A DNA stretch of 44,246 nucleotides from IMG/VR virus record IMGVR_UViG_3300045988_013393, positions 1 to 44,246 of that record, one strand, 5' to 3'. Position 1 is the stretch's first letter. Each line of letters opens with the position of its first letter. Under the pieces are notes generated by a model, which saw only the letters and a program-made list of their open reading frames with translations, searched no databases and was not told the origin of the DNA. This DNA is from a virus. Taxonomy: Duplodnaviria; Heunggongvirae; Uroviricota; Caudoviricetes. Both the position numbers and the translations under genes were made by a program. Of the stretch, positions 872 to 44,246 are shown piece by piece.

Positions 872-1056
872 TTACGGCAACCTCCCTCAGAGTCGTCGGC
901 ACGAGCATCACGATTCGATGCCGTTCTCTCCCGCACTTCGACCATCCTTCCTACCTCTGCGGCGTAATACACATACAGCTTTATTGCGTAATCTTTATTA
1001 CTCGTGGTCTCTGTTATGGCTCCGTCTACGTATACGTCGTAAATTAATTCTTCCAT
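868..1056 (-). CDS. Hypothetical small protein (~62 aa)
   Basis: ORF track 868..1059; ATG at 1056-1054 overlaps the upstream stop. Confidence 0.4.
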   Translation of the reverse strand: MEELIYDVYVDGAITETTSNKDYAIKLYVYYAAEVGRMVEVRERTASNRDARADDSEGGCRK

Positions 1057-1238
1057 CACTTCGCCCCTTTGAATTTAAAATTGTTGCCGATGAGTTCCAT
1101 ATCCTGCGCGTATAAAACGGTGAGATACGACCCCGTTAAAGATTCAGCAAAATAGATATTATTTTCTTTGTGAAATGCGAATATGACCGCAAATTCTCCG
1201 GTCTCAGTAACCCGAACCAACTGACCCTTCTTAAACAT
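1056..1238 (-). CDS. Hypothetical small protein (~60 aa), first gene of minus-strand small-gene array
   Basis: ORF track 1056..1247 starts with GTG; ATG at 1238 has a GAGGAG RBS 8 nt upstream. Confidence 0.45.
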   Translation of the reverse strand: MFKKGQLVRVTETGEFAVIFAFHKENNIYFAESLTGSYLTVLYAQDMELIGNNFKFKGAK

Positions 1239-1272
1239 AACCCTCACTCCTCTGTCTCGTTTCGATAAGTGA

Positions 1273-1301
1273 ATAGTATCCTATTATGTTGGGGTGTGCA
1301 A
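1273..1301 (-). promoter_or_regulatory. Class B sigma70-like promoter (TTGCAC-N17-TACTAT) with embedded GAATAG-N4-CTATTA palindrome
   Basis: On minus strand TTGCAC (1301-1296), 17-bp spacer, TACTAT (1278-1273); ~60-bp element nearly identical to 22553-22581, 32481-32509 and 43865-43893. Confidence 0.5.
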
Positions 1302-1363
1302 GAGATTAGTTACGTTGCCGTTGTGATTCTTTAGGGAAGGTTGTGCCTTTATTCTTATTACTT

Positions 1364-1720: not shown

Positions 1721-1903
1721 ATGCAACATTACATGACCCAGAATGAAGTAGCTGAGCGTATTGGGGTGACACGCCAGACAATTAATAACTGGTTGCGCAG
1801 TGGTAAATTCCCTGACTGCTGTATTAAAGTTATGGGTCGCCGTTTACCAGGAACATTTGACCGTAATAAAGTTGAAGCGTGGATTAAGGAGAATGTGAAA
1901 TGA
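1721..1903 (+). CDS. Small HTH DNA-binding protein (AlpA/excisionase-like fold suggested)
   Basis: ATG 1721 with AGGAGA RBS; sequence MQHYMTQNEVAERIGVTRQTINNWLRSGKFP is a classic helix-turn-helix; ORF track start at 1607 is likely too long. Confidence 0.55.
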   Translation: MQHYMTQNEVAERIGVTRQTINNWLRSGKFPDCCIKVMGRRLPGTFDRNKVEAWIKENVK

Positions 1904-2388: not shown

Positions 2389-4592
2389 ATATTGTTTTTG
2401 CAACGCTGCGTAACACTTTCGATAAAAACCCGGTAGCCCGTGAAATGCCACTGGAGCAGTTTGTAGAGTATGTCTGCGATACATCGAAGCGCCTGTCCGT
2501 AGACCCGTCATGGACTAAGGAAGAGTACGACGCGGCCAAGATTAAGCAGAAAGCTATTGCGCCGGTTGGCGGTCGCCGTAAGAACGCGATTCTGGAAGAC
2601 AGTGTGGTTAAGTTCGATTTCGACCATCTAAACCGTACCCAGTACCGCGACCTCACCCGCAAATTCAAGAACGCGCCGTTCTTCAATATTCTGCACACAA
2701 CGGCGTCGCACCAGCACGCGTGTAAAAACGGTGACTACGCTTTCCGCGTTCTTGTACCGGCCCGCACGCCGTTTAACTCTAACGACGCGTGGATGGTGCA
2801 ACGTGCTATTTGTGCTGAGTTAGAAATAGACGAAGCATTGCGCGACCACTGCACAGAAGATGGCAACCGCCTTATCTACCTGCCGCATAAAGAGTCGAAG
2901 ATAACGGTTACAGAAGGGCGTGTTATCCGTGCCGAGCGGTACATCAAGAAAGCCGAAGAAATGGGGTTGCGTAAGCGTGAAGCTAAGACCCTTGCTGCCG
3001 ATGAGCATGGGCTTAACGCGGATATAGCGCATTTCTGCGAAGCGGAGCTTGGCCTTGACGCTTTATCTTCCGGTCGCGGGTACGAAGTGCCTTGCCCTAA
3101 CGAACACCTGCACACCGGCAAAGGCTCCACCAGCATCATGCTCGACGGTAAAGAAGTGCGCTTCGTGTGCCAGCACACAAACAACGGTGCTTGCACTGAG
3201 CTTAACCGCCGACAACATTTGGCCCTGCGTATGTGCGGCCTTCCGGACGAGCTTAACGTAGACAAGCAACCTATCAGTATTAACAGCATTCGTGCGGCTC
3301 TGCCTGATTTACCGGATGAAGAGATTGAAGAACTGCACCGCACAGAGAACGAGGAGCCTGTAACTTGTACACTGGAAGACCTTGAAGACGATGACGAGTT
3401 ACCTGAACCGGTAAAGGCTGATTTCGTCGTTGAAGGGTACATGCCGTCGGATTGCATCTGGGACATCGTCGGGGAATCCGGCACATATAAATCATTCTAT
3501 ACGCTGGGTATGATGTACCTGAGCGCCGCAGGGTACCGGTTTGCAGGCGCTGATACACAGCGTTGCCACCATTTCTATATTGACGGTGAGGGCGGTGCTG
3601 CCACACGCACCCGTATTGATGCACTCGCGGCTAAATACGGCGAGGAAGGTAAAGATTATGTACATGTCATCGATATGGGCGAAGTTGGCAAACTGAAAAG
3701 CCTGATTAAGCTAATGCGAGAAACTGCGGGTGGCGAACCCATCGGCATGGTCGCGTTCGATACTCTCAACCAGACACTGGCCCTGACGATTGATAAGTTC
3801 GACGAGAACAGTTCATCAACGGCAATCGGCATGGGTAAAGTTATCGCCATCCTTAAAGAAGTACGTGACGCAACTAAAGCCGCGGTGGGCGTCGTCCACC
3901 ATACACCGAAGGGCGGAAAGAAAGCCCGTGGCAGCGGGGCGCTGTATGCGGGTGTCGATGTGGAACTGACAATAGAACGTGCAACCGACCGTCAGATAAA
4001 CGTATACCACTCGAAATTTAAGCACGGGCCTCAACAGAAAACGGTTGGCATGGTGCTGGAGTCCGTACAGTTCCGTGAAGCGCCGCCGCCGAAAGAGTAC
4101 CGCGCGGTTGAGTTCCTGGGCAGCACAGAGGAATACGGCACAATCGTAAACCTCGACCTGCCGGAACCACACAAGGCGCTTGTTCTGATGCCGTGGGGCT
4201 TCGAGCCGTTCAAAACTGACGAGGAGAAAGAGCGGGAAGAAGGGTTAACTAACGAAGGTAAACAAAAAGTAAAGGAAGAAGTTAAACGCGGCAGGGATGA
4301 AGTAAGGAAGGAGTCGATACTTTCGGCACTGGAAGACCTGCAACAGTCAGATGACACAGGTCGCGGTTTTACTCAGCAGCAGATAGTGGCCCGTTCCGGT
4401 GACTTTTCTGTGACTAACACCCATCTTGATAAAATGCTGAAAGATGGTGAACTAATGCTAGGCTGTGATGCTAATGGCGAAGTAGTACCGAGAACGTATC
4501 GTATACCTGAAAGAATAGGGGATAGATTAAGGCCGAAGACAATATACGAACCGAATGAAATGCTAGTGGTTACTGAGGAAGATTTGGAATAG
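2385..4592 (+). CDS. Putative primase-polymerase / P-loop helicase replication protein (735 aa)
   Basis: N-terminal DxD (FDFDH) and H-rich (HTTASHQH) motifs suggest an AEP-like primase; Cys/His cluster CPNEHLH...CQH...C; Walker A GESGTYKS, Walker B MVAFD; acidic C-terminus ending EEDLE. Confidence 0.6.
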   Translation: MNIVFATLRNTFDKNPVAREMPLEQFVEYVCDTSKRLSVDPSWTKEEYDAAKIKQKAIAPVGGRRKNAILEDSVVKFDFDHLNRTQYRDLTRKFKNAPFFNILHTTASHQHACKNGDYAFRVLVPARTPFNSNDAWMVQRAICAELEIDEALRDHCTEDGNRLIYLPHKESKITVTEGRVIRAERYIKKAEEMGLRKREAKTLAADEHGLNADIAHFCEAELGLDALSSGRGYEVPCPNEHLHTGKGSTSIMLDGKEVRFVCQHTNNGACTELNRRQHLALRMCGLPDELNVDKQPISINSIRAALPDLPDEEIEELHRTENEEPVTCTLEDLEDDDELPEPVKADFVVEGYMPSDCIWDIVGESGTYKSFYTLGMMYLSAAGYRFAGADTQRCHHFYIDGEGGAATRTRIDALAAKYGEEGKDYVHVIDMGEVGKLKSLIKLMRETAGGEPIGMVAFDTLNQTLALTIDKFDENSSSTAIGMGKVIAILKEVRDATKAAVGVVHHTPKGGKKARGSGALYAGVDVELTIERATDRQINVYHSKFKHGPQQKTVGMVLESVQFREAPPPKEYRAVEFLGSTEEYGTIVNLDLPEPHKALVLMPWGFEPFKTDEEKEREEGLTNEGKQKVKEEVKRGRDEVRKESILSALEDLQQSDDTGRGFTQQQIVARSGDFSVTNTHLDKMLKDGELMLGCDANGEVVPRTYRIPERIGDRLRPKTIYEPNEMLVVTEEDLE

Positions 4593-4609
4593 GTAAAAAG
4601 AAAGGGGCG

Positions 4610-4825
4610 TTAAGCCCCTTCACCGAACGCCAGCCACTTGGCGTCTACTTCCAGCACTTCCGCCAGTTTAAACAGCGTCGCCGGGCGGACGTCCTGAGTC
4701 ACCCCAAGCGCAAGCTGGTTAATAGCGCCCTGGGAAACGCCCGCCAGAACAGCCAGACGGCGCTGGGAGATGCCGAGTTCTTTACGGCGTTGTTCTACAC
4801 GGATACCTAGTTCAGATGGTTGCAT
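4610..4825 (-). CDS. XRE-family HTH transcriptional regulator (Cro/CI-like, 71 aa)
   Basis: ISQRRLAVLAGVSQGAINQL helix-turn-helix; AAGGAG RBS; only minus-strand gene in the plus-strand early block, divergent from operator-containing promoters. Confidence 0.7.
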   Translation of the reverse strand: MQPSELGIRVEQRRKELGISQRRLAVLAGVSQGAINQLALGVTQDVRPATLFKLAEVLEVDAKWLAFGEGA

Positions 4826-4845: not shown

Positions 4846-4874
4846 TTGATATGTGAATAGTACCATATTAATTA
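4846..4874 (+). promoter_or_regulatory. Class A promoter, degenerate copy (TTGATA-N17-TAATTA) with GAATAG palindrome
   Basis: Upstream member of a tandem promoter pair between the XRE gene and ORF 4950. Confidence 0.4.
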
Positions 4875-4889: not shown

Positions 4890-4918
4890 TTGACAAGTGA
4901 ATAGTTCGCTATTATAGT
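4890..4918 (+). promoter_or_regulatory. Class A sigma70 promoter (TTGACA-N17-TATAGT) with GAATAG-ttcg-CTATTA palindrome in spacer
   Basis: Consensus -35; same architecture at 7009 and 10777. Confidence 0.6.
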
Positions 4919-4949
4919 TAGCCTATACCAAACGAGAGGAGAGAAACAA

Positions 4950-7008: not shown

Positions 7009-7037
7009 TTGACACCTGAATAGTTAGCTATTATATT
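7009..7037 (+). promoter_or_regulatory. Class A sigma70 promoter (TTGACA-N17-TATATT) with GAATAG-ttag-CTATTA palindrome
   Basis: Consensus -35/-10 spacing, upstream of the SSB-like gene. Confidence 0.6.
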
Positions 7038-10527: not shown

Positions 10528-10808
10528 CCCCGGAGGGCAAGATTCAGAAATACGCAAAAGAGCGATTCGAGGCCCTGGGGGGCCTCGTACGCAAATTGTC
10601 GTACGAAAATAGAGTGGGCGCTCCTGACCTGCTGGTAATTCTCCCCGGCGGCATCGTATGGTTCGTCGAGGTTAAGAAAGACGAAAATACGAAGCCTGAC
10701 CTGCACCAGTTACGAGAGCACGAGCGGATGCGTAAACGTGGTGCAAATATTTTTGTCGTCGGGTCGTTCAAACAGGTTGACGACCTAATAGCGAACTATT
10801 ATAGTTAG
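10524..10808 (+). CDS. VRR-NUC domain nuclease (PD-(D/E)XK)
   Basis: GAPDLLVILPGGIVWFVEVKK matches the VRR-NUC signature; sits upstream of an SNF2 helicase, a common phage pairing. Confidence 0.65.
   Translation: MTPEGKIQKYAKERFEALGGLVRKLSYENRVGAPDLLVILPGGIVWFVEVKKDENTKPDLHQLREHERMRKRGANIFVVGSFKQVDDLIANYYS
10777..10805 (+). promoter_or_regulatory. Class A promoter (TTGACG-N17-TATAGT) with perfect TAATAG-cgaa-CTATTA palindrome
   Basis: Lies inside the 3' end of the VRR-NUC gene, upstream of gene 10839. Confidence 0.5.
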
Positions 10809-10838
10809 TCCTACACCAACAATATAAGGAATTTAGAA

Positions 10839-12780: not shown

Positions 12781-12807
12781 AAGGCCCCGATTGGGGCCTT
12801 AGTTTTA
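12781..12807. terminator. Bidirectional intrinsic terminator (AAGGCCCC-gatt-GGGGCCTT)
   Basis: Between convergent early plus operon and minus-strand tailspike gene; same stem reused at 25211, 33063 and 35545. Confidence 0.65.
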
Positions 12808-22444: not shown

Positions 22445-22552
22445 TCTTTAATCCTTTGGTTAAGAGGTTACAGGTTAATGGTAAATGCGCCAGACGGGAA
22501 CCACCCGCTTTTCGTGTGCGACACTAGGCGCAAAATTATTCTATCACATTAC

Positions 22553-22581
22553 TTGCGCACCCCAACATAATAGGATACTAT
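22553..22581 (+). promoter_or_regulatory. Class B promoter (TTGCGC-N17-TACTAT) driving plus-strand accessory island
   Basis: Near-identical to the element at 1273-1301; conserved leader ttaactcaaacaggag before ATG 22623. Confidence 0.5.
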
Positions 22582-22622
22582 TCACTTACACCAACAATGT
22601 TAACTCAAACAGGAGCTACACC

Positions 22623-22814
22623 ATGACAGGTATTACTATGTTCTTCTTAATCATTATCGTTTTAGTTTATTTTATCCCGTTTTTAGTGGCCCATATGCGC
22701 GGACATAAAGCGAAACTGGCGATATTCATGGCTAATCTGTTTCTCGGCTGGGTTCTGCTGCCGTGGGTATTTATTTTAATCTGGGCTTGCAACTCGAATG
22801 TCAAAGAGAAGTGA
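22623..22814 (+). CDS. Small membrane protein, superinfection-immunity (Imm)-like
   Basis: 63 aa, two TM segments; YFIPFLVAHMRGHKAKLAIFMANLFLGWVLLPWV...IWAC resembles the Imm-family signature as recalled from memory; AGGAG RBS. Confidence 0.5.
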   Translation: MTGITMFFLIIIVLVYFIPFLVAHMRGHKAKLAIFMANLFLGWVLLPWVFILIWACNSNVKEK

Positions 22815-22852
22815 GCTAGTATAGGACAAATCCTAAACACGAGGAAGTAAGC

Positions 22853-23983
22853 ATGGCCCGGAAGAAAATAACCGACGAACAGTTACAGGAAGAATTGAAC
22901 GCCGGAACAAAGATTATCGACATATCCCGTAAATACGGCATCTCAGACCGAGTTATTCGTATCCGTAAAGCGAAGCTGGCGAAGAAAGGCGTAGGTCACG
23001 GTCGTGACGTTAGCCATCTTGTCCCGGACGGCTACAAAATTAAAGGAACGTCGTCACTGGTGGACGAGTTCGGCAACACTAAGTTGCAATGGGTTAAGAC
23101 AGACACCGACGCCGAACGTCAGGTCGAGTTAATGAAAGCCGTGATCGAAGGAATGAAGTCGGAGATTACGCCAGTTGCGCCGGTTAAAGCGACTCGAGCC
23201 AAACGCGACGATAAACTACTCAATCTGTACACGGTATCTGATTTCCATCTTGGTATGCTGGCCTGGGCTGACGAGAGCGGCGACGACTGGGATATGAAGA
23301 TTGCGGAAGACCTGTTCTCCCGATGGTTCGATGCGGCGTTTCAGAAAGCACCAGATGCAGGAACTGGGGTTATTAACCTGCTGGGTGACTTCGCGCACTT
23401 CGATAGTCTGGATGCGGTTACGCCAGCGAGTGGTCATGTTCTTGATGCGGACACTCGTTATCAGAAACTGGTCCGCTACATGATTCGTATGGTACGCCGT
23501 GTTGTTGACATGGCGCTGGTTAAGCATAAATCTGTTCGCTTGCTTATCGTGCAAGGGAACCACGACGAAAGCGGAATGATTTGGTTAGCTGAGATGTTTA
23601 GTACGCTGTACGACAATGAGCCGCGTGTGTTCGTCGATACGTCGCCGGATGTTTACAAGATGGTCCAACACGGCAAAACTACGCTGTTCTTTCACCACGG
23701 GCATAAGGCGCGATTCGACGCTATCGAACCGGTAATGATTGCCAAGTTCCGTAAAGCGTTCGGCGAGAGTGTTTACAGCTACGCCCACGTAGGCCATCTG
23801 CACCACCAGAAGATTGTAGAAAGCCGTAACATGATTGTTGAGCAACACCGCACCTTAGCGGCTAAAGACGCCTACGCCTCGCGCGGCGGATGGATGTCGG
23901 GCCGTAGTGCAAATGTAATTACTTATAGCGCCGAATATGGCGAGGTCGCACGTTTAACTATTTCACCGGAGATGCTGGGATGA
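22853..23983 (+). CDS. HTH domain fused to calcineurin-like metallophosphoesterase (SbcD/Mre11-like motifs)
   Basis: N-terminal HTH (ISRKYGISDRVIRIRKAKLAKKG); MPP motifs DFHLG, GDFAHFD, GNHDE, HHGH, GHLHH; DxHLG is typical of SbcD/Mre11 nucleases. Confidence 0.6.
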   Translation: MARKKITDEQLQEELNAGTKIIDISRKYGISDRVIRIRKAKLAKKGVGHGRDVSHLVPDGYKIKGTSSLVDEFGNTKLQWVKTDTDAERQVELMKAVIEGMKSEITPVAPVKATRAKRDDKLLNLYTVSDFHLGMLAWADESGDDWDMKIAEDLFSRWFDAAFQKAPDAGTGVINLLGDFAHFDSLDAVTPASGHVLDADTRYQKLVRYMIRMVRRVVDMALVKHKSVRLLIVQGNHDESGMIWLAEMFSTLYDNEPRVFVDTSPDVYKMVQHGKTTLFFHHGHKARFDAIEPVMIAKFRKAFGESVYSYAHVGHLHHQKIVESRNMIVEQHRTLAAKDAYASRGGWMSGRSANVITYSAEYGEVARLTISPEMLG

Positions 23984-24468
23984 AAGATATTGTGATTTTC
24001 GATTTAGACGGGACATTGGCGGATGGTACTCATCGTTTACACCTGCTGCCGAAAGATAACTACGGCGAAACCTGGGCGTGGAAGCCTTTTAACATGGCCT
24101 GCAAAGATGACGCGCCCATTAAAGATAACATCCACTTGTGCAACACGCTGTGGCATACCGGGATGACCATAATCATCCTTACCGGGCGAAGCGACGACGC
24201 CGAGGAAGAAACTCGTGAGTGGTTACGTAAAAACAATGTCAAGTTCGACGTTCTGTTAATGCGCAGCAAGCACGACAACAGAAAAGACATCGTAATTAAA
24301 GAAGAGGTGTTACGTGCTATCGGGCTGGAGAGAATATTGTGTGCGTTCGACGACTCTCCAGCGGTAATAAAGCATTTCCGCGGACTCGGTATAACCACTC
24401 ACGCGGTTACTGAATACGACTGTAACGGGAACTCTACACACTTAAAATCACACGGGAGCGATAAATAA
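23980..24468 (+). CDS. HAD-family phosphatase, polynucleotide-kinase 3'-phosphatase-like
   Basis: DxDGT motif (VIFDLDGTLADG) and downstream segments resemble the T4 Pnk phosphatase domain (from memory); ATGA-coupled to the MPP gene. Confidence 0.55.
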   Translation: MKDIVIFDLDGTLADGTHRLHLLPKDNYGETWAWKPFNMACKDDAPIKDNIHLCNTLWHTGMTIIILTGRSDDAEEETREWLRKNNVKFDVLLMRSKHDNRKDIVIKEEVLRAIGLERILCAFDDSPAVIKHFRGLGITTHAVTEYDCNGNSTHLKSHGSDK

Positions 24469-25037
24469 TGGCTAAGGTAATTATTCTTAATGGCCCTGCG
24501 GGCTGCGGGAAAGACACACTTGCTATGGCGCTGGTAGAAATGGGCTTTGCGAAAGGAACTACCAGTTTCAAGAATCCAATGTTCAATATTGCTCGGGCAG
24601 CGTTAGGCCCGGATGCTTACCACGAATTTCTCGACGGCTACGACGACCGGGCACGGAAAGAAAAGCCAGAATGTTTCCTTAATGGGTTGTCGCGACGTCA
24701 GTTCATGATTGCTATCTCGGAGCAATTCATTAAGCCTGTACTTGGCAATGATTATTTCGGTAAGTATCTCGCTGAAAACTTGCCTGACGGCGACGAAGTT
24801 TTTGTAGTGTCCGACGGTGGGTTTGCCAGTGAAGTTGCCCCTATCGTCGCCGCTGGGCATGACGTGCGAATCGTCCGCTTGCACCGAGACGGCTACACGT
24901 TTGACGGGGATAGCCGTGGCTACCTGTACGATATTGATGGGGTAGTATGCCATGACGTCGCCATCATTCCTGGTGAGATTACATTAACCGCGGCCACGGT
25001 TGCCAATAGAATCCTGGGGATTTACCCAAATGCGTGA
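24468..25037 (+). CDS. P-loop kinase (dNMP-kinase-like; possible polynucleotide/nucleotide kinase)
   Basis: Walker A GPAGCGKDT resembles the SGKDT P-loop of T4 gp1 dNMP kinase; start overlaps the phosphatase stop (TAATG). Confidence 0.5.
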   Translation: MAKVIILNGPAGCGKDTLAMALVEMGFAKGTTSFKNPMFNIARAALGPDAYHEFLDGYDDRARKEKPECFLNGLSRRQFMIAISEQFIKPVLGNDYFGKYLAENLPDGDEVFVVSDGGFASEVAPIVAAGHDVRIVRLHRDGYTFDGDSRGYLYDIDGVVCHDVAIIPGEITLTAATVANRILGIYPNA

Positions 25038-25210: not shown

Positions 25211-25237
25211 AAGGCCCCGAAAGGGGCCTTAGTTTTA
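25211..25237. terminator. Bidirectional intrinsic terminator (AAGGCCCC-gaaa-GGGGCCTT + TTTTA)
   Basis: Closes the plus-strand island; convergent with the major tail gene. Confidence 0.65.
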
Positions 25238-31818: not shown

Positions 31819-32161
31819 ATCCTGAGATGTGATTGGCGTTATCGATGGCGGCCTGTTTCAGCTTAACGCGTGCTTCATCGAAAGTGCAGACATTGCGGCC
31901 AGGCGTCCTGACGTACTTAACGACTTCCTGCGTAATGGTTACGGTGCGGGCAGCACCCTGCTGTTCAGCGACGGCGGCACGGGTGTCGTTTTGTTGCTGC
32001 CGTTGTGTTTTCTTCGCTAGCTCCGCCTGTGCTTTCTGCTGTTGCTGCGAAACGAGATTCGCCCGGCCTTCGTTCCAGCCGCTGCGATACTGGTAGATTC
32101 CGTAGCCGTATGTCAGGAGGATGAAACATGCTCCAGCTACGACAGTTGCGTTAAGATTCAT
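31805..32161 (-). CDS. Inner-membrane spanin (Rz-like)
   Basis: N-terminal TM segment then Gln/Ala-rich coiled coil; paired with downstream lipoprotein. Confidence 0.65.
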   Translation of the reverse strand: MNLNATVVAGACFILLTYGYGIYQYRSGWNEGRANLVSQQQQKAQAELAKKTQRQQQNDTRAAVAEQQGAARTVTITQEVVKYVRTPGRNVCTFDEARVKLKQAAIDNANHISGYDHE

Positions 32162-32412
32162 GTTTCCCCTTTCTCGATAAGTAAAGCCCCGCCTTAAAGC
32201 GGGGCGCTAGTCCTTATCATTTAAACATAGAAACGGCGTAATCTCAGTAAACCAGTTACTTTTTACACAAGCAATAGAGTATGGCCCTTCCGAACGCGTC
32301 AGCGTAACTACACTCAGGACTTACGTCCCGCTCCGTTACCTGCCCGCGCCGCGGTCGCTTGCTCATACTTCACAAGCTCAGGTGGAGCTTATCATATTTT
32401 CAGTGAAAAGTC

Positions 32413-32458
32413 AACTATTCGAATAGTTTATTCCAACGTTTACAATTGAGTGGAATAA
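32413..32458. promoter_or_regulatory. Perfect 16-bp palindrome AACTATTCGAATAGTT plus inverted repeat TTATTCCA-N15-TGGAATAA
   Basis: Read directly; contains CTATTC/GAATAG half-sites; lies just upstream of a class B promoter. Confidence 0.4.
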
Positions 32459-32480
32459 CTGGAATACGTAAATAAATAGT

Positions 32481-32509
32481 TTGCGCGCACCAACATAATA
32501 GGGTACTAT
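32481..32509 (+). promoter_or_regulatory. Class B promoter (TTGCGC-N17-TACTAT) driving plus-strand moron 32537
   Basis: Same conserved element and leader (ttaacttaaacaggag) as at 22553. Confidence 0.5.
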
Positions 32510-32536
32510 TCAGTTAACTTAAACAGGAGATGATAA

Positions 32537-33058
32537 ATGGTTACTACAGTAATTACTTTCCCTGCGTATGTAGGGGCGAAAATATGCAGGGCTAAAAATG
32601 ATGTTCGCTACTATTTGAACGCTTTTTACATAGACCCTGAAGGATTGATAGTGTCTACGGACGGTCATAGATTGTTCGGCGACAATGTGAAGACCAACGT
32701 TGAGAAAGGGACTCTCATAGACATCAAAGGGAGAGAGCCTTCTAAATTTAACTACGCGGAGGTAAACCACGACAACGGCAGTGTATCTTTCTATGACGAT
32801 AATCGTGCGCTTATATGTACACTTCCGGTAGATGTTGTAGAAGGAAACTTTCCTGACTGGAGACGCGTGGCGCACATCACACCGGGTGTTGTCGATAGTA
32901 TAGGGTTCACTCTGCGCTATTTGGCAGACGCGTACAAGATTTCTAAGGCATACAAAAATGAAATTGCTCGTTTCGATTTCCAGGACCAAACCAGAGGATG
33001 CAAAATACAATTTTCAAACACGGCCTTTATGGTGTTAATGCCTGCGCGATTTAAATAA
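32537..33058 (+). CDS. Hypothetical protein (173 aa), plus-strand moron in head module
   Basis: Own promoter, AGGAG RBS and own terminator; opposite strand to all neighbours; no family recognised. Confidence 0.5.
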   Translation: MVTTVITFPAYVGAKICRAKNDVRYYLNAFYIDPEGLIVSTDGHRLFGDNVKTNVEKGTLIDIKGREPSKFNYAEVNHDNGSVSFYDDNRALICTLPVDVVEGNFPDWRRVAHITPGVVDSIGFTLRYLADAYKISKAYKNEIARFDFQDQTRGCKIQFSNTAFMVLMPARFK

Positions 33059-33062
33059 AACT

Positions 33063-33086
33063 AAGGCCCCTTACGGGGCCTTTTAT
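33063..33086. terminator. Intrinsic terminator (AAGGCCCC-ttac-GGGGCCTT + TTTTAT)
   Basis: Immediately after moron stop; same stem as the other terminators. Confidence 0.65.
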
Positions 33087-35285: not shown

Positions 35286-35372
35286 ATTTTATCGTCCCGA
35301 TAAACAATTCGATTTAAAGGTGTCATGTATACGTACGATACTACATTCGTTGATTAAACAGGAGGCTTAAAC

Positions 35373-35540
35373 ATGAACCACCATAAACTGATTACCGCTT
35401 TCATCAATAACGGTTGGACTGAGAAAGACGCTTTTGATGCAGCATACGCGTATAGAAACTGTGACTTGACGCTTGAAGGGGATTCTCAAGAGGATTATGA
35501 CAAAGCAGTAAGAGAAGAAATGGGTTGCTGGGGGAGCTAA
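35373..35540 (+). CDS. Small plus-strand moron ORF (55 aa)
   Basis: CAGGAGG RBS; followed by terminator; between portal and head morphogenesis genes on opposite strand. Confidence 0.4.
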   Translation: MNHHKLITAFINNGWTEKDAFDAAYAYRNCDLTLEGDSQEDYDKAVREEMGCWGS

Positions 35541-35544
35541 AACT

Positions 35545-35569
35545 AAGGCCCCATAACGGGGCCTTTTTA
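35545..35569. terminator. Intrinsic terminator (AAGGCCCC-ataac-GGGGCCTT + TTTTTAT)
   Basis: Hairpin with T-run directly after the moron ORF. Confidence 0.65.
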
Positions 35570-40546: not shown

Positions 40547-40628
40547 TTCTCTCTACTCCGTTCTCGTTGTCGATGGAGTAAATATAATAGGGTCGAAGGT
40601 AATAGTCAACTAGTCATTGCGGAAAATA

Positions 40629-40662
40629 GATAAAAAAAATCCCGGCTGGGTCAGGGCCGGGA
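40629..40662 (-). terminator. Intrinsic terminator on minus strand (ATCCCGGC-loop-GCCGGGAT + T8)
   Basis: 8-bp stem followed by eight T on minus strand (plus A-run 40631-40638). Confidence 0.6.
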
Positions 40663-40702
40663 TAAAACTGGAGAGTAGAGGGATGAAGCAGGAGGTGATT
40701 TA

Positions 40703-40731
40703 AGTATCGTCGGATTAGTCTTAGGTGTCAA
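40703..40731 (-). promoter_or_regulatory. Candidate promoter (TTGACA-N17-GATACT) for a short minus-strand transcript
   Basis: Consensus -35 on minus strand; would give a ~65-nt pyrimidine-rich RNA ending at terminator 40629-40662. Confidence 0.25.
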
Positions 40732-43546: not shown

Positions 43547-43703
43547 TTTTCTGTTGCTCCCGGTCTCTTTTTAACATTTCGTTGGCTTCCGCCGGTGCCT
43601 CTTTCCAGGTATCGAACTGGCGCCCGTTGCACACCCACGGAGCACCATTATAATTTCCTCTACGTCTTAAGTACCCGTACGATACTGCTTCTTTAAACGT
43701 CAT
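43536..43703 (-). CDS. Small ORF (55 aa)
   Basis: ATG start, overlaps downstream gene by 11 nt; below ORF-track cutoff. Confidence 0.3.
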   Translation of the reverse strand: MTFKEAVSYGYLRRRGNYNGAPWVCNGRQFDTWKEAPAEANEMLKRDREQQKNEQ

Positions 43704-43833
43704 ATTCTTCACCCCTTTTCTCGTCCACCCTGACTAGAAGCGATTTAGTGTCGCCGTCGCACACCGAAGTGCTGCCCATCATTTCGTAAGCATCTACCAG
43801 TTCGCCTAAAGTCCAGCTACCGTACCAACCCAT
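43693..43833 (-). CDS. Small ORF (46 aa), first gene after class B promoter
   Basis: ATG with GAGGAGA RBS. Confidence 0.35.
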   Translation of the reverse strand: MGWYGSWTLGELVDAYEMMGSTSVCDGDTKSLLVRVDEKRGEEYDV

Positions 43834-43864
43834 ATCCTGTCTCTCCTCTCGTTTGTGTAAATGA

Positions 43865-43893
43865 ATAGTAGCCTATTCTATCTTAGTGTGCAA
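43865..43893 (-). promoter_or_regulatory. Class B promoter (TTGCAC-N17-TACTAT) with perfect GAATAG-gcta-CTATTC palindrome
   Basis: Aligns with the element at 1273-1301 including the downstream leader; drives the minus-strand small-gene array towards the lysis cassette. Confidence 0.5.
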
Positions 43894-43900
43894 GTAAATT

Positions 43901-44185: not shown

Positions 44186-44246
44186 CTATTGACCTGTTAC
44201 ACCACCTGTTACACCACCTGTTACACCACCTGTTACACCACCTGTT
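44186..44246 (-). CDS. C-terminal part of (GVTG)n repeat protein; stop at 44188-44186
   Basis: Minus-strand GVTG frame through the repeat ends with Gln then TAG just outside the array; joins ORF 1-216 only if the replicon is circular/permuted. Confidence 0.35.
   Translation of the reverse strand, partial: TGGVTGGVTGGVTGGVTGQ
44192..44246. repeat. Tandem direct repeat ACCTGTTACACC, 4 full copies plus 7 bp, continuous with array at 1-84
   Basis: Same unit as window start; window ends mid-unit. Confidence 0.9.

Follow-up and report, generated by a model that had tools for sequence, protein, structure and literature searches.

A moron is an autonomous promoter-gene-terminator unit within a late operon, a concept that came from the comparative genomics of HK97 and lambda. 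In T4-type phages, small non-essential genes are headed by promoter-early stem-loops (PeSLs), repeated sigma-70 promoters with an inverted repeat that end at a Shine-Dalgarno (SD) sequence and start codon and lie at insertion, deletion and replacement boundaries between close relatives (Arbiol et al. 2010, PMC2839356; Comeau et al. 2014, PMC4122927). In Escherichia phage fBC-Eco01 (OM272052.1), seven "phage promoters" (PP1-PP7, consensus tgAATAGTa-ccTATTat-T) were annotated with PHIRE (PMC9825357, Table S2); the paper attributes this motif to a phage RNA polymerase, and the GenBank record lists regulatory features. Seven PHIRE promoters are likewise given for vB_EcoS-Golestan (PMC7203180). Here, we describe a cassette, termed class B, that occurs four times in a 44,246-base stretch of viral DNA (IMG/VR record IMGVR_UViG_3300045988_013393; hereafter the window) and appears to combine a sigma-70 promoter, a candidate operator and a joint for the exchange of gene modules. 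The window is a complete Kagunavirus (Guernseyvirinae) genome that shares 90-95% identity, along most of its length, with Escherichia phages such as fBC-Eco01 (∼94%), the LF7074 phages and Bas74.

The PHIRE motif is the reverse complement of the class B core, and PP1-PP7 occupy orthologous places upstream of Imm, the gene for a 173-residue (173-aa) protein, both small-gene arrays, the XRE gene and the helicase operon. The motif is therefore already catalogued, though mislabelled, and will not surprise a specialist. By contrast with the description given here, it stands in fBC-Eco01 as a bare 20-mer, with no reading in terms of -35 and -10 hexamers, dyad or operator, promoter class or recombination. 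An earlier interpretation of the window made from its letters alone (the sequence-only reading) had singled out the four copies as promoters that link early small-gene arrays to genes of the late region; it overlooked both this literature and the part the element plays as a recombination joint for cargo exchange.

The pattern TTGCRC-N17-TACTAT was matched exactly at 1273-1301 and 43865-43893 on the minus strand and at 22553-22581 and 32481-32509 on the plus strand, the positions named by the sequence-only reading. Only 0.46 matches would be expected by chance, none of 100 shuffles gave four, and no other match was present in the window even with one mismatch. The conserved core spans ∼38 bp, from c/tTTGCRC through TTCAnTTA, with a pairwise identity of 26-36 of 38 positions. 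Its flanks fall to background identity (3-5 of 11 positions upstream and 5-11 of 22 downstream), so the near-identical element of ∼60 bp that had been proposed shrinks accordingly. Outside the core, the sole common part is a short leader, AAAC(A/G)(G)AG...GGAG. The proposal that each copy lies immediately upstream of a gene was borne out: all four are followed by a same-strand open reading frame (ORF) with a GGAG-type SD sequence, and the start codons at 1238, 22623, 32537 and 43833 sit 28-42 nt past the -10 box.

The individual copies are B1 (1265-1302, minus strand; -35 TTGCAC at 1301-1296, -10 TACTAT at 1278-1273), B2 (22552-22589, plus strand; -35 TTGCGC at 22553-22558, -10 TACTAT at 22576-22581), B3 (32480-32517, plus strand; -35 TTGCGC at 32481-32486, -10 TACTAT at 32504-32509) and B4 (43857-43894, minus strand; -35 TTGCAC at 43893-43888, -10 TACTAT at 43870-43865). 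B1 would drive a small-gene array from the ATG at 1238, B2 an island at 22623-25037, B3 the 173-aa cargo gene and B4 a second small-gene array from the ATG at 43833. In every copy, TACTAT lies exactly 17 bp after the -35 box and is preceded by G at -14. The -35 boxes match the consensus at three of six positions, which include the best-conserved TTG. Judged by these features, the four elements are credible sigma-70-type promoters and, given that they use the six best-conserved consensus positions at optimal spacing, they are probably of moderate strength. Class B elements are conserved at orthologous places in Kagunavirus, and one site is also conserved in Jerseyvirus.

Other assignments for the cassette were considered and rejected. 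An alternative -10 box within the core (CATAAT at sites 1-3, TAGAAT at site 4) has no conserved -35 box at the right distance, and conservation begins at TTGC. A promoter on the opposite strand would have a -35-like hexamer (TCGATA) at site 1 only, sites 2-4 scoring 1-2 of 6. Searches of the window against Rfam and for tRNAs gave no matches, and hence no known RNA element at or near the sites.

Each class B copy contains the dyad AATAG-N4-CTATT (B1, 1270-1287; B2, 22567-22584; B3, 32495-32512; B4, 43862-43879). The sequence-only reading had assigned a GAATAG/CTATTC palindrome to all four; the dyad is indeed common to them, but the full arms are found only at B4, the best palindrome of the set (GAATAG-N4-CTATTC), and sites 1-3 carry TAATAG/CTATTC. 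When AATAG-N4-CTATT was sought across the window with at most one mismatch, 10 sites were found against 1.05 expected (∼10-fold over shuffles), all of them at promoter-like hexamer pairs. The sites are graded, with eight strong and two weaker, and those outside class B lie at 4856, 4900, 7019, 10787, 32406 and 40601. Together they define an 18-bp quasi-palindrome, T(G/A)AATAG-N4-CTATT(C/A)(A/T), with arm centres 9 bp apart, which is the geometry used by Cro-type dimers.

Several of these sites belong to promoters of a different class, class A. A1 (4890-4918, plus strand; TTGACA-N17-TATAGT) is divergent from the XRE gene and holds TGAATAG-TTCG-CTATTAT in its spacer at 4898-4915. A2 (7009-7037, plus strand; TTGACA-N17-TATATT; dyad at 7017-7034) lies upstream of the DUF2815/SSB-like and DNA polymerase genes, and A3 (10777-10805, plus strand; TTGACG-N17-TATAGT; dyad at 10785-10802) upstream of the SNF2 helicase operon. 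The XRE gene itself is preceded by a promoter at 4852-4869 (minus strand) with a -10 box TACTAT at 4862-4857 after TGG, an extended -10, and no -35 box; its dyad, AATAT-GGTA-CTATT, has one mismatch and stands in the class B register. In D1 (40581-40614, minus strand; TTGACT-N17-TATATT) and D2 (32386-32419, minus strand; TTGACT-N17-TAAGCT, back-to-back with B3), the -35 box falls within a one-mismatch dyad (ACTAG-TTGA-CTATT and AATAG-TTGA-CTTTT, respectively), and these two are only possible operators. A perfect 16-bp palindrome, AACTATTCGAATAGTT, at 32413-32428 between D2 and B3 presents the same half-sites outward (CTATT-CG-AATAG) and gives this region three consecutive half-sites.

Read along the direction of transcription, the class A dyad is TGAATAG-N4-CTATTAT centred at ∼-18.5, whereas class B carries the reverse complement, ATAATAG-N4-CTATTCA, centred at ∼-12.5; the class A site is thus in the opposite orientation with its centre 6 bp further upstream. 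The Imm promoter of Jerseyvirus Ent1 shows a third register, TTGCAT-N7-AATAG-TGTC-CTATT with -10 TATTAT, centred at -15.5. At orthologous promoters in four Kagunavirus genomes and in Jerseyvirus Ent1, the AATAG and CTATT arms are invariant and the central N4 varies freely; in A3, for example, the centre reads CGAA, CAAA, CAGA, CTAG or AACA. The intergenic DNA around the conserved arms has also diverged. As far as sequence comparison can indicate, fixed arms with a free centre are the hallmark of a DNA site recognised by a dimeric, sequence-specific protein. No match to the dyad was found in Cornellvirus VSiA or PhiSTP2; gapped-word counts in VSiA gave no clear repeated dyad as a replacement operator, and the equivalent promoters there carry other sequences, such as ATTAGT..AGTAT and ACTAAT-N10-ATTAGT. 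The host Fur box was rejected as an identity for the dyad, which by hand alignment matches the consensus GATAATGATAATCATTATC at only 9 of 19 positions.

The surroundings of B3 show that the cassette is also a place where genomes have been joined. The block 33084-32466, comprising a terminator, the 173-aa gene and the class B promoter, is 97% identical to fBC-Eco01 3344-3965, where its neighbours are the portal gene and the head-morphogenesis gene. The encoded protein is 99% identical to fBC-Eco01 gp04, although the gene occupies another slot in that genome. In the window, the block stands between a 152-aa gene and promoter D2, a position that in fBC-Eco01 is taken by two other small genes, headed by that phage's own class B copy (PP2). 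In K1G, a unit of 596 bp (32467-33062) is precisely absent. A three-way alignment revealed that the sequence upstream of B3 corresponds to the PP2 flank of fBC-Eco01 and the sequence downstream of the core to the PP1 cargo, the switch falling inside the shared core. The other crossover of the 173-aa module falls inside a terminator of the form AAGGCCCC-loop-GGGGCCTT, the bidirectional AAGGCCCCTTACGGGGCCTT at 33063-33082 (-15 kcal/mol). This terminator is one of four near-identical and mostly bidirectional copies, AAGGCCCC-(4-5 nt)-GGGGCCTT, at 12781-12800, 25211-25230, 33063-33082 and 35545-35565, and the family is present at every junction between convergent modules. A slot at 35286-35544 (plus strand), between the head-morphogenesis gene and the portal terminator, is where fBC-Eco01 carries the 173-aa cassette; in the window it holds a different 55-aa gene (35373-35540), upstream of which only GATACTA of the class B core is left.

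Similar behavior was observed beyond B3. Around B4, two other Kagunaviruses are homologous to the window only over 43918-43831, an interval that opens shortly before the -35 box and closes at the ATG. When IMG/VR was searched for the class B pattern, 85 loci were recovered from 40 contigs, each of which had 1-4 copies (mode 3). Of the instances from IMG/VR, the window and GenBank genomes, the 125 with enough flanking sequence fell into 19 upstream-flank clusters and 47 downstream-flank clusters. The first genes belong to no fewer than 25 unrelated families, and 4-9 cargos were combined with each upstream context. One IMG/VR match, in a 63.9-kb contig, was set aside; the rest of the core is missing and it looks like a chance occurrence. 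B2 with the terminator at 25211-25230, and B3 with that at 33063-33082, form autonomous units on the strand opposite to the neighbouring genes. Viewed across these genomes, the class B cassette appears to be a mosaic joint and module boundary in addition to a promoter, bracketing cargo together with the repeated GC-rich terminator.

Two small phage proteins are candidates for binding the dyad. The gene at 4610-4825 (minus strand) encodes a 71-aa XRE/Cro-type HTH_3 regulator; it is monocistronic, with a terminator at 4601-4621, and the protein is annotated as Cro or repressor in relatives. Two dyads lie in the lambda-like divergent region between this gene and A1. The T that spoils one operator arm of the XRE promoter simultaneously makes the TGn extended -10, a trade-off that would give a weaker, autoregulatory site. 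The alternative is a 60-aa HTH_17 protein ("excisionase and transcriptional regulator") encoded at 1721-1903 (plus strand), the gene of which has a promoter, TTGCTT-N17-TATACT at 1661-1689, without a dyad. This protein is 82% identical between Kagunavirus and Jerseyvirus, is confined to 443 records of such phages, and is missing from both of the dyad-less relatives, VSiA and PhiSTP2; the XRE orthologues in these two are only 41-43% identical. On grounds of symmetry and location, the XRE protein is favoured as the most likely candidate, with HTH_17 as the alternative.

On the whole, we consider it somewhat more likely than not that the cassette is a host sigma-70 promoter combined with an operator for a dimeric phage HTH repressor, and that it doubles as a portable module boundary. 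In this model, host sigma-70 RNA polymerase would read TTGCRC, the G at -14 and TACTAT, and would start near the conserved TTA. RNA polymerase would be kept out by a dimer of a small phage HTH protein, which would occupy positions -21 to -4 of class B promoters and -27 to -10 of class A promoters. Accessory genes, replication genes and the regulator itself would then all be under negative control as a single regulon, giving a virulent phage a Cro-like circuit for shut-off or feedback, and short-homology recombination within the cassette and the GC-rich terminator repeats would move or replace cargo. Repression is the economical reading, given that the near-consensus class A promoters cannot need an activator. 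A more ambitious version is doubtful but worth stating: a plug-and-play 38-bp promoter-operator that would put any recently acquired gene under one small phage repressor, which would also control the replication genes and its own gene, at ∼10 promoters in several registers, while its short homology would move cargo between fixed slots, in both Kagunavirus and Jerseyvirus. If true, it would be a siphovirus counterpart of the T4 PeSLs in which the inverted repeat has been turned into a protein operator.

A number of observations count against the promoter-operator model. Only half of the positions in the class B -35 box agree with the consensus, and a generic sigma-70 scanner made no call at these sites. 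The D1 and D2 sites each have one mismatch and may just reflect -35 context. The sign of regulation is deduced from operator position alone. The recognition helix of the XRE protein is SQGAINQL in Kagunavirus and SQSLITHL in Jerseyvirus, so that four of eight residues differ with the same dyad arms; the recognition helix of HTH_17 differs in K1G, where the dyads are the same, and neither protein co-varies cleanly with the motif. The correlation between presence or absence of dyad and regulator is based on very few independent lineages. Finally, crossovers within shared sequence may partly show where alignments can overlap rather than preferred sites of recombination.

The question of co-regulation was raised by the sequence-only reading, which inferred from the shared promoter that genes embedded among structural genes are expressed with the early small-gene arrays. 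The link itself holds to the extent that class B joins the two arrays with two autonomous units among structural genes, and the common palindrome makes co-regulation plausible. Given that the palindrome is also present in the promoters of the replication genes and the regulator, however, the co-regulated set is wider than class B. A host-takeover role was not supported: the cargo consists of nucleotide- and DNA-metabolism functions (Imm, a metallophosphoesterase-type exonuclease, a PNKP-type phosphatase, a dNMP-kinase-like protein and the clamp-like 173-aa protein), for which co-expression with replication genes makes sense.

The only Kagunavirus transcriptome is that of vB_Eco_K1B4 (PMC12645636), which covers samples taken from 5 to 120 min, for a latent period of 30 min; phage reads made up at most 8.9% of the total, and the data are reported as gene-level classes only. 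Given that sampling extended beyond one latent period, its "late" class mixes infection cycles. In these data, an HTH gene is among the four earliest genes, and the superinfection-immunity gene falls outside the four "early" genes in the last-peaking class with DNA polymerase and methylases (PMC12645636). The phage gene numbers of that study could not be mapped to coordinates. In the K1B4 genome, Imm lies downstream of a class B cassette, and the polymerase and methylases follow class A if gene order is as in K1G. The K1B4 classes hint at a shared regulon of dyad-bearing promoters rather than at "immediate early" expression.

The sites could be plain sigma-70 promoters without an operator, alike because promoters were duplicated together with morons, with the palindrome a by-product of an AT-rich -10 box and spacer. 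The cassettes have demonstrably been copied and moved, and RNA polymerase contacts would explain part of the conservation, since the right-hand arm and the -10 hexamer overlap in classes A and B. Such contacts cannot explain the conservation of the left arm, which falls within the spacer, a region that sigma-70 does not contact in a base-specific way, and which is invariant across genera while the central four bases and the flanks drift. The use of the dyad in either orientation and in three or more registers with respect to the -10 box, its enrichment over shuffles and the copy in the promoter of the Cro-like gene also speak for a bound protein, and we judge an explanation by promoters alone to be unlikely. 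Were the binder instead an activator or a dual regulator like phi29 p4, class B promoters would be delayed or middle promoters that need early-made HTH_17, and the morons would come on after the immediate-early genes. Such an account would fit the weak class B -35 box, the suboptimal TTGC(R/Y) form of which is kept across genera, as well as the phyletic co-occurrence of HTH_17 with the dyad and the dyad-free promoter of the HTH_17 gene. It would also fit the K1B4 data if, with gene numbers mapped by inference, the early HTH gene is this one and Imm peaks with DNA polymerase. Set against these points, class A promoters with the same dyad are near-consensus (11 of 12 positions) and need no activator, sites centred at -12 to -18 are typical of occlusion rather than recruitment, and the spacers are 17 bp as opposed to the 19-20 bp of MerR-type activation. 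HTH_17 and Xis-like proteins, moreover, usually bind direct rather than inverted repeats. Positive control by this protein is accordingly thought improbable.

Two further explanations concern the nature of the motif. Its assignment to a phage-encoded RNA polymerase follows the PHIRE annotation of fBC-Eco01 and Golestan, and both the paper and the GenBank record name phage RNA polymerase promoters for the motif found seven times in fBC-Eco01. PHIRE, however, merely reports repeated 20-mers, and the use of the dyad in both orientations relative to genes is incompatible with the directional promoter of a single-subunit RNA polymerase. Among the ORFs of at least 400 aa in the window, which encode a helicase-primase, DNA polymerase A, SNF2 helicase, nuclease, portal, terminase and tail proteins, none contains an RNA polymerase domain, in agreement with the annotation of fBC-Eco01. 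Given that the genome encodes no RNA polymerase, the label is wrong, and we attach next to no credence to this explanation. An inverted repeat that acts as a PeSL-type stem-loop, attenuating read-through or promoting recombination as a cruciform in place of binding protein, would account for the PeSL-like geometry and mosaic behavior seen here. As RNA, however, the dyad forms a weak AT-rich hairpin with a stem of 5-6 bp and no U-tract (-1.4 to -6.2 kcal/mol, compared with -15 kcal/mol for a real terminator). In all promoter classes the predicted start is downstream of the dyad, which would therefore not be transcribed from the promoter that contains it, and it is the arm sequence itself that is kept, not just complementarity. 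A structural role of this kind is very unlikely.

The first gene after B1 (1056-1238, minus strand) encodes a 60-aa protein of phrog_12538, function unknown, and is followed on the same strand by genes at 868-1059, 599-871, 408-602 and 220-411. The B2 island on the plus strand opens with Imm_superinfect (22623-22814), followed by a metallophosphoesterase annotated as "DNA repair exonuclease" (22853-23983), an HAD_PNKP phosphatase (23980-24468) and a dNMP-kinase-like P-loop protein (24468-25037), and ends at the terminator 25211-25230. The enzyme set at 22853-25037 beside Imm recalls nucleic-acid end-healing and repair functions, and in fBC-Eco01 the last two genes of the island are replaced by three small ORFs. 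The B3 cargo gene (32537-33058, plus strand) encodes the 173-aa protein, which has no match in Pfam and matches phrog_3007 and phrog_947 (DNA metabolism, clamp-like). The first gene after B4 (43693-43833, minus strand) encodes 46 aa, and homology to relatives ends exactly at its ATG.

Leader sequences are also shared between promoter classes. The block TACACCAACAAT is common to B2 (22585-22602) and A3 (10806-10822), and CAAACGAGAGGAGAG is common to B4 (43840-43856) and A1 (4926-4942), which suggests a conserved 5'-untranslated or translation-initiation module besides the promoter. Further promoter-terminator units were noted on the minus strand. At 40630-40731, the promoter TTGACA-N17-GATACT (40731-40703) precedes a predicted transcript of ∼65 nt that ends at a hairpin and T8 terminator; its unstructured C/U-rich 5' part begins with AAUCACCUCCU, the anti-SD end of 16S rRNA. 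The unit is kept in three other Kagunaviruses and has no Rfam match. Its product is a candidate small RNA that could pair with GGAG-rich leaders. At 32186-32414, promoter D2 is followed by ∼200 nt without an ORF and by a strong terminator (32205-32186); the Rz-like gene comes shortly after, at 32161. The ORF-less unit, which has no Rfam match, may be either a long leader or attenuator or a non-coding RNA. A second unit of promoter, non-coding DNA and terminator lies at 1374-1623, directly upstream of B1, with the promoter TTGAAA-N18-TATAAT (1623-1594), ∼200 nt without a convincing ORF and a terminator at 1394-1374.

The ends of the window bear on the arrangement of the two small-gene arrays. 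Its first 55 bases are the same as its last 55 and form part of a perfect tandem array of the 12-bp unit ACCTGTTACACC, with 7.1 copies at 1-85 and 4.6 copies at 44192-44246. This identity is probably the assembler's k-mer overlap of a circular assembly, which would make the two minus-strand arrays contiguous and the true genome ∼44,191 bp, with the copy number of the repeat uncertain. Read on the minus strand, the array falls in frame within an ORF beginning near 216, where it gives the product a C-terminal (GVTG)n repeat; the copy number in relatives is 1, 2 or 6. It is a variable-number repeat within a small gene of the B1 array.

Kagunaviruses are common, little-studied Escherichia coli phages, are represented in the BASEL collection and serve as a chassis for engineered phages (PMC11990801). 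A promoter map with a probable single-regulator circuit would indicate where payloads may be inserted and which 38-bp cassette gives native-like expression, and the terminator-bounded slots would mark positions that tolerate cargo. The analysis also corrects a "phage RNA polymerase promoter" annotation that is spreading in GenBank records. None of these results overturns current understanding; they describe fairly ordinary phage regulation and mosaic evolution.

In comparison with T4-type PeSLs, the class B cassettes share the repeated sigma-70 promoter with an inverted repeat, the end at an SD sequence and start codon, the small non-essential genes that follow, and the position at boundaries between close relatives (PMC2839356, PMC4122927). 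The inverted repeat of a PeSL is a G/C-rich terminator hairpin, whereas here it is a sequence-conserved, weakly folding AT-rich dyad; the terminator forms a distinct repeat at the far end of the cargo, and the phage is a 44-kb siphovirus. The idea of regulatory repeats as engines of modular shuffling is thereby extended from T4-type myoviruses to small siphoviruses. With the lambdoid Cro/CI operators (lambda OR/OL, 434 and P22), the sites share dyads of 14-18 bp with half-site centres ∼9-10 bp apart over the -10 box or spacer of sigma-70 promoters, multiple graded copies, one of them in the regulator's own promoter within a divergent region, and an HTH_3 regulator of ∼70 aa. Lambdoid operators are clustered in one immunity region, in contrast to the candidate operators here, which are dispersed over at least eight promoters of a virulent phage with no integrase or CI-type lysogeny module. 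Like morons, the 173-aa unit and the Imm island are each equipped with a promoter of their own and a flanking terminator, run against the direction of the surrounding structural genes and show sharp presence/absence boundaries. Classical morons are typically prophage-expressed, whereas here several morons and the early arrays use one promoter-operator cassette that would tie them to the phage's own circuit.

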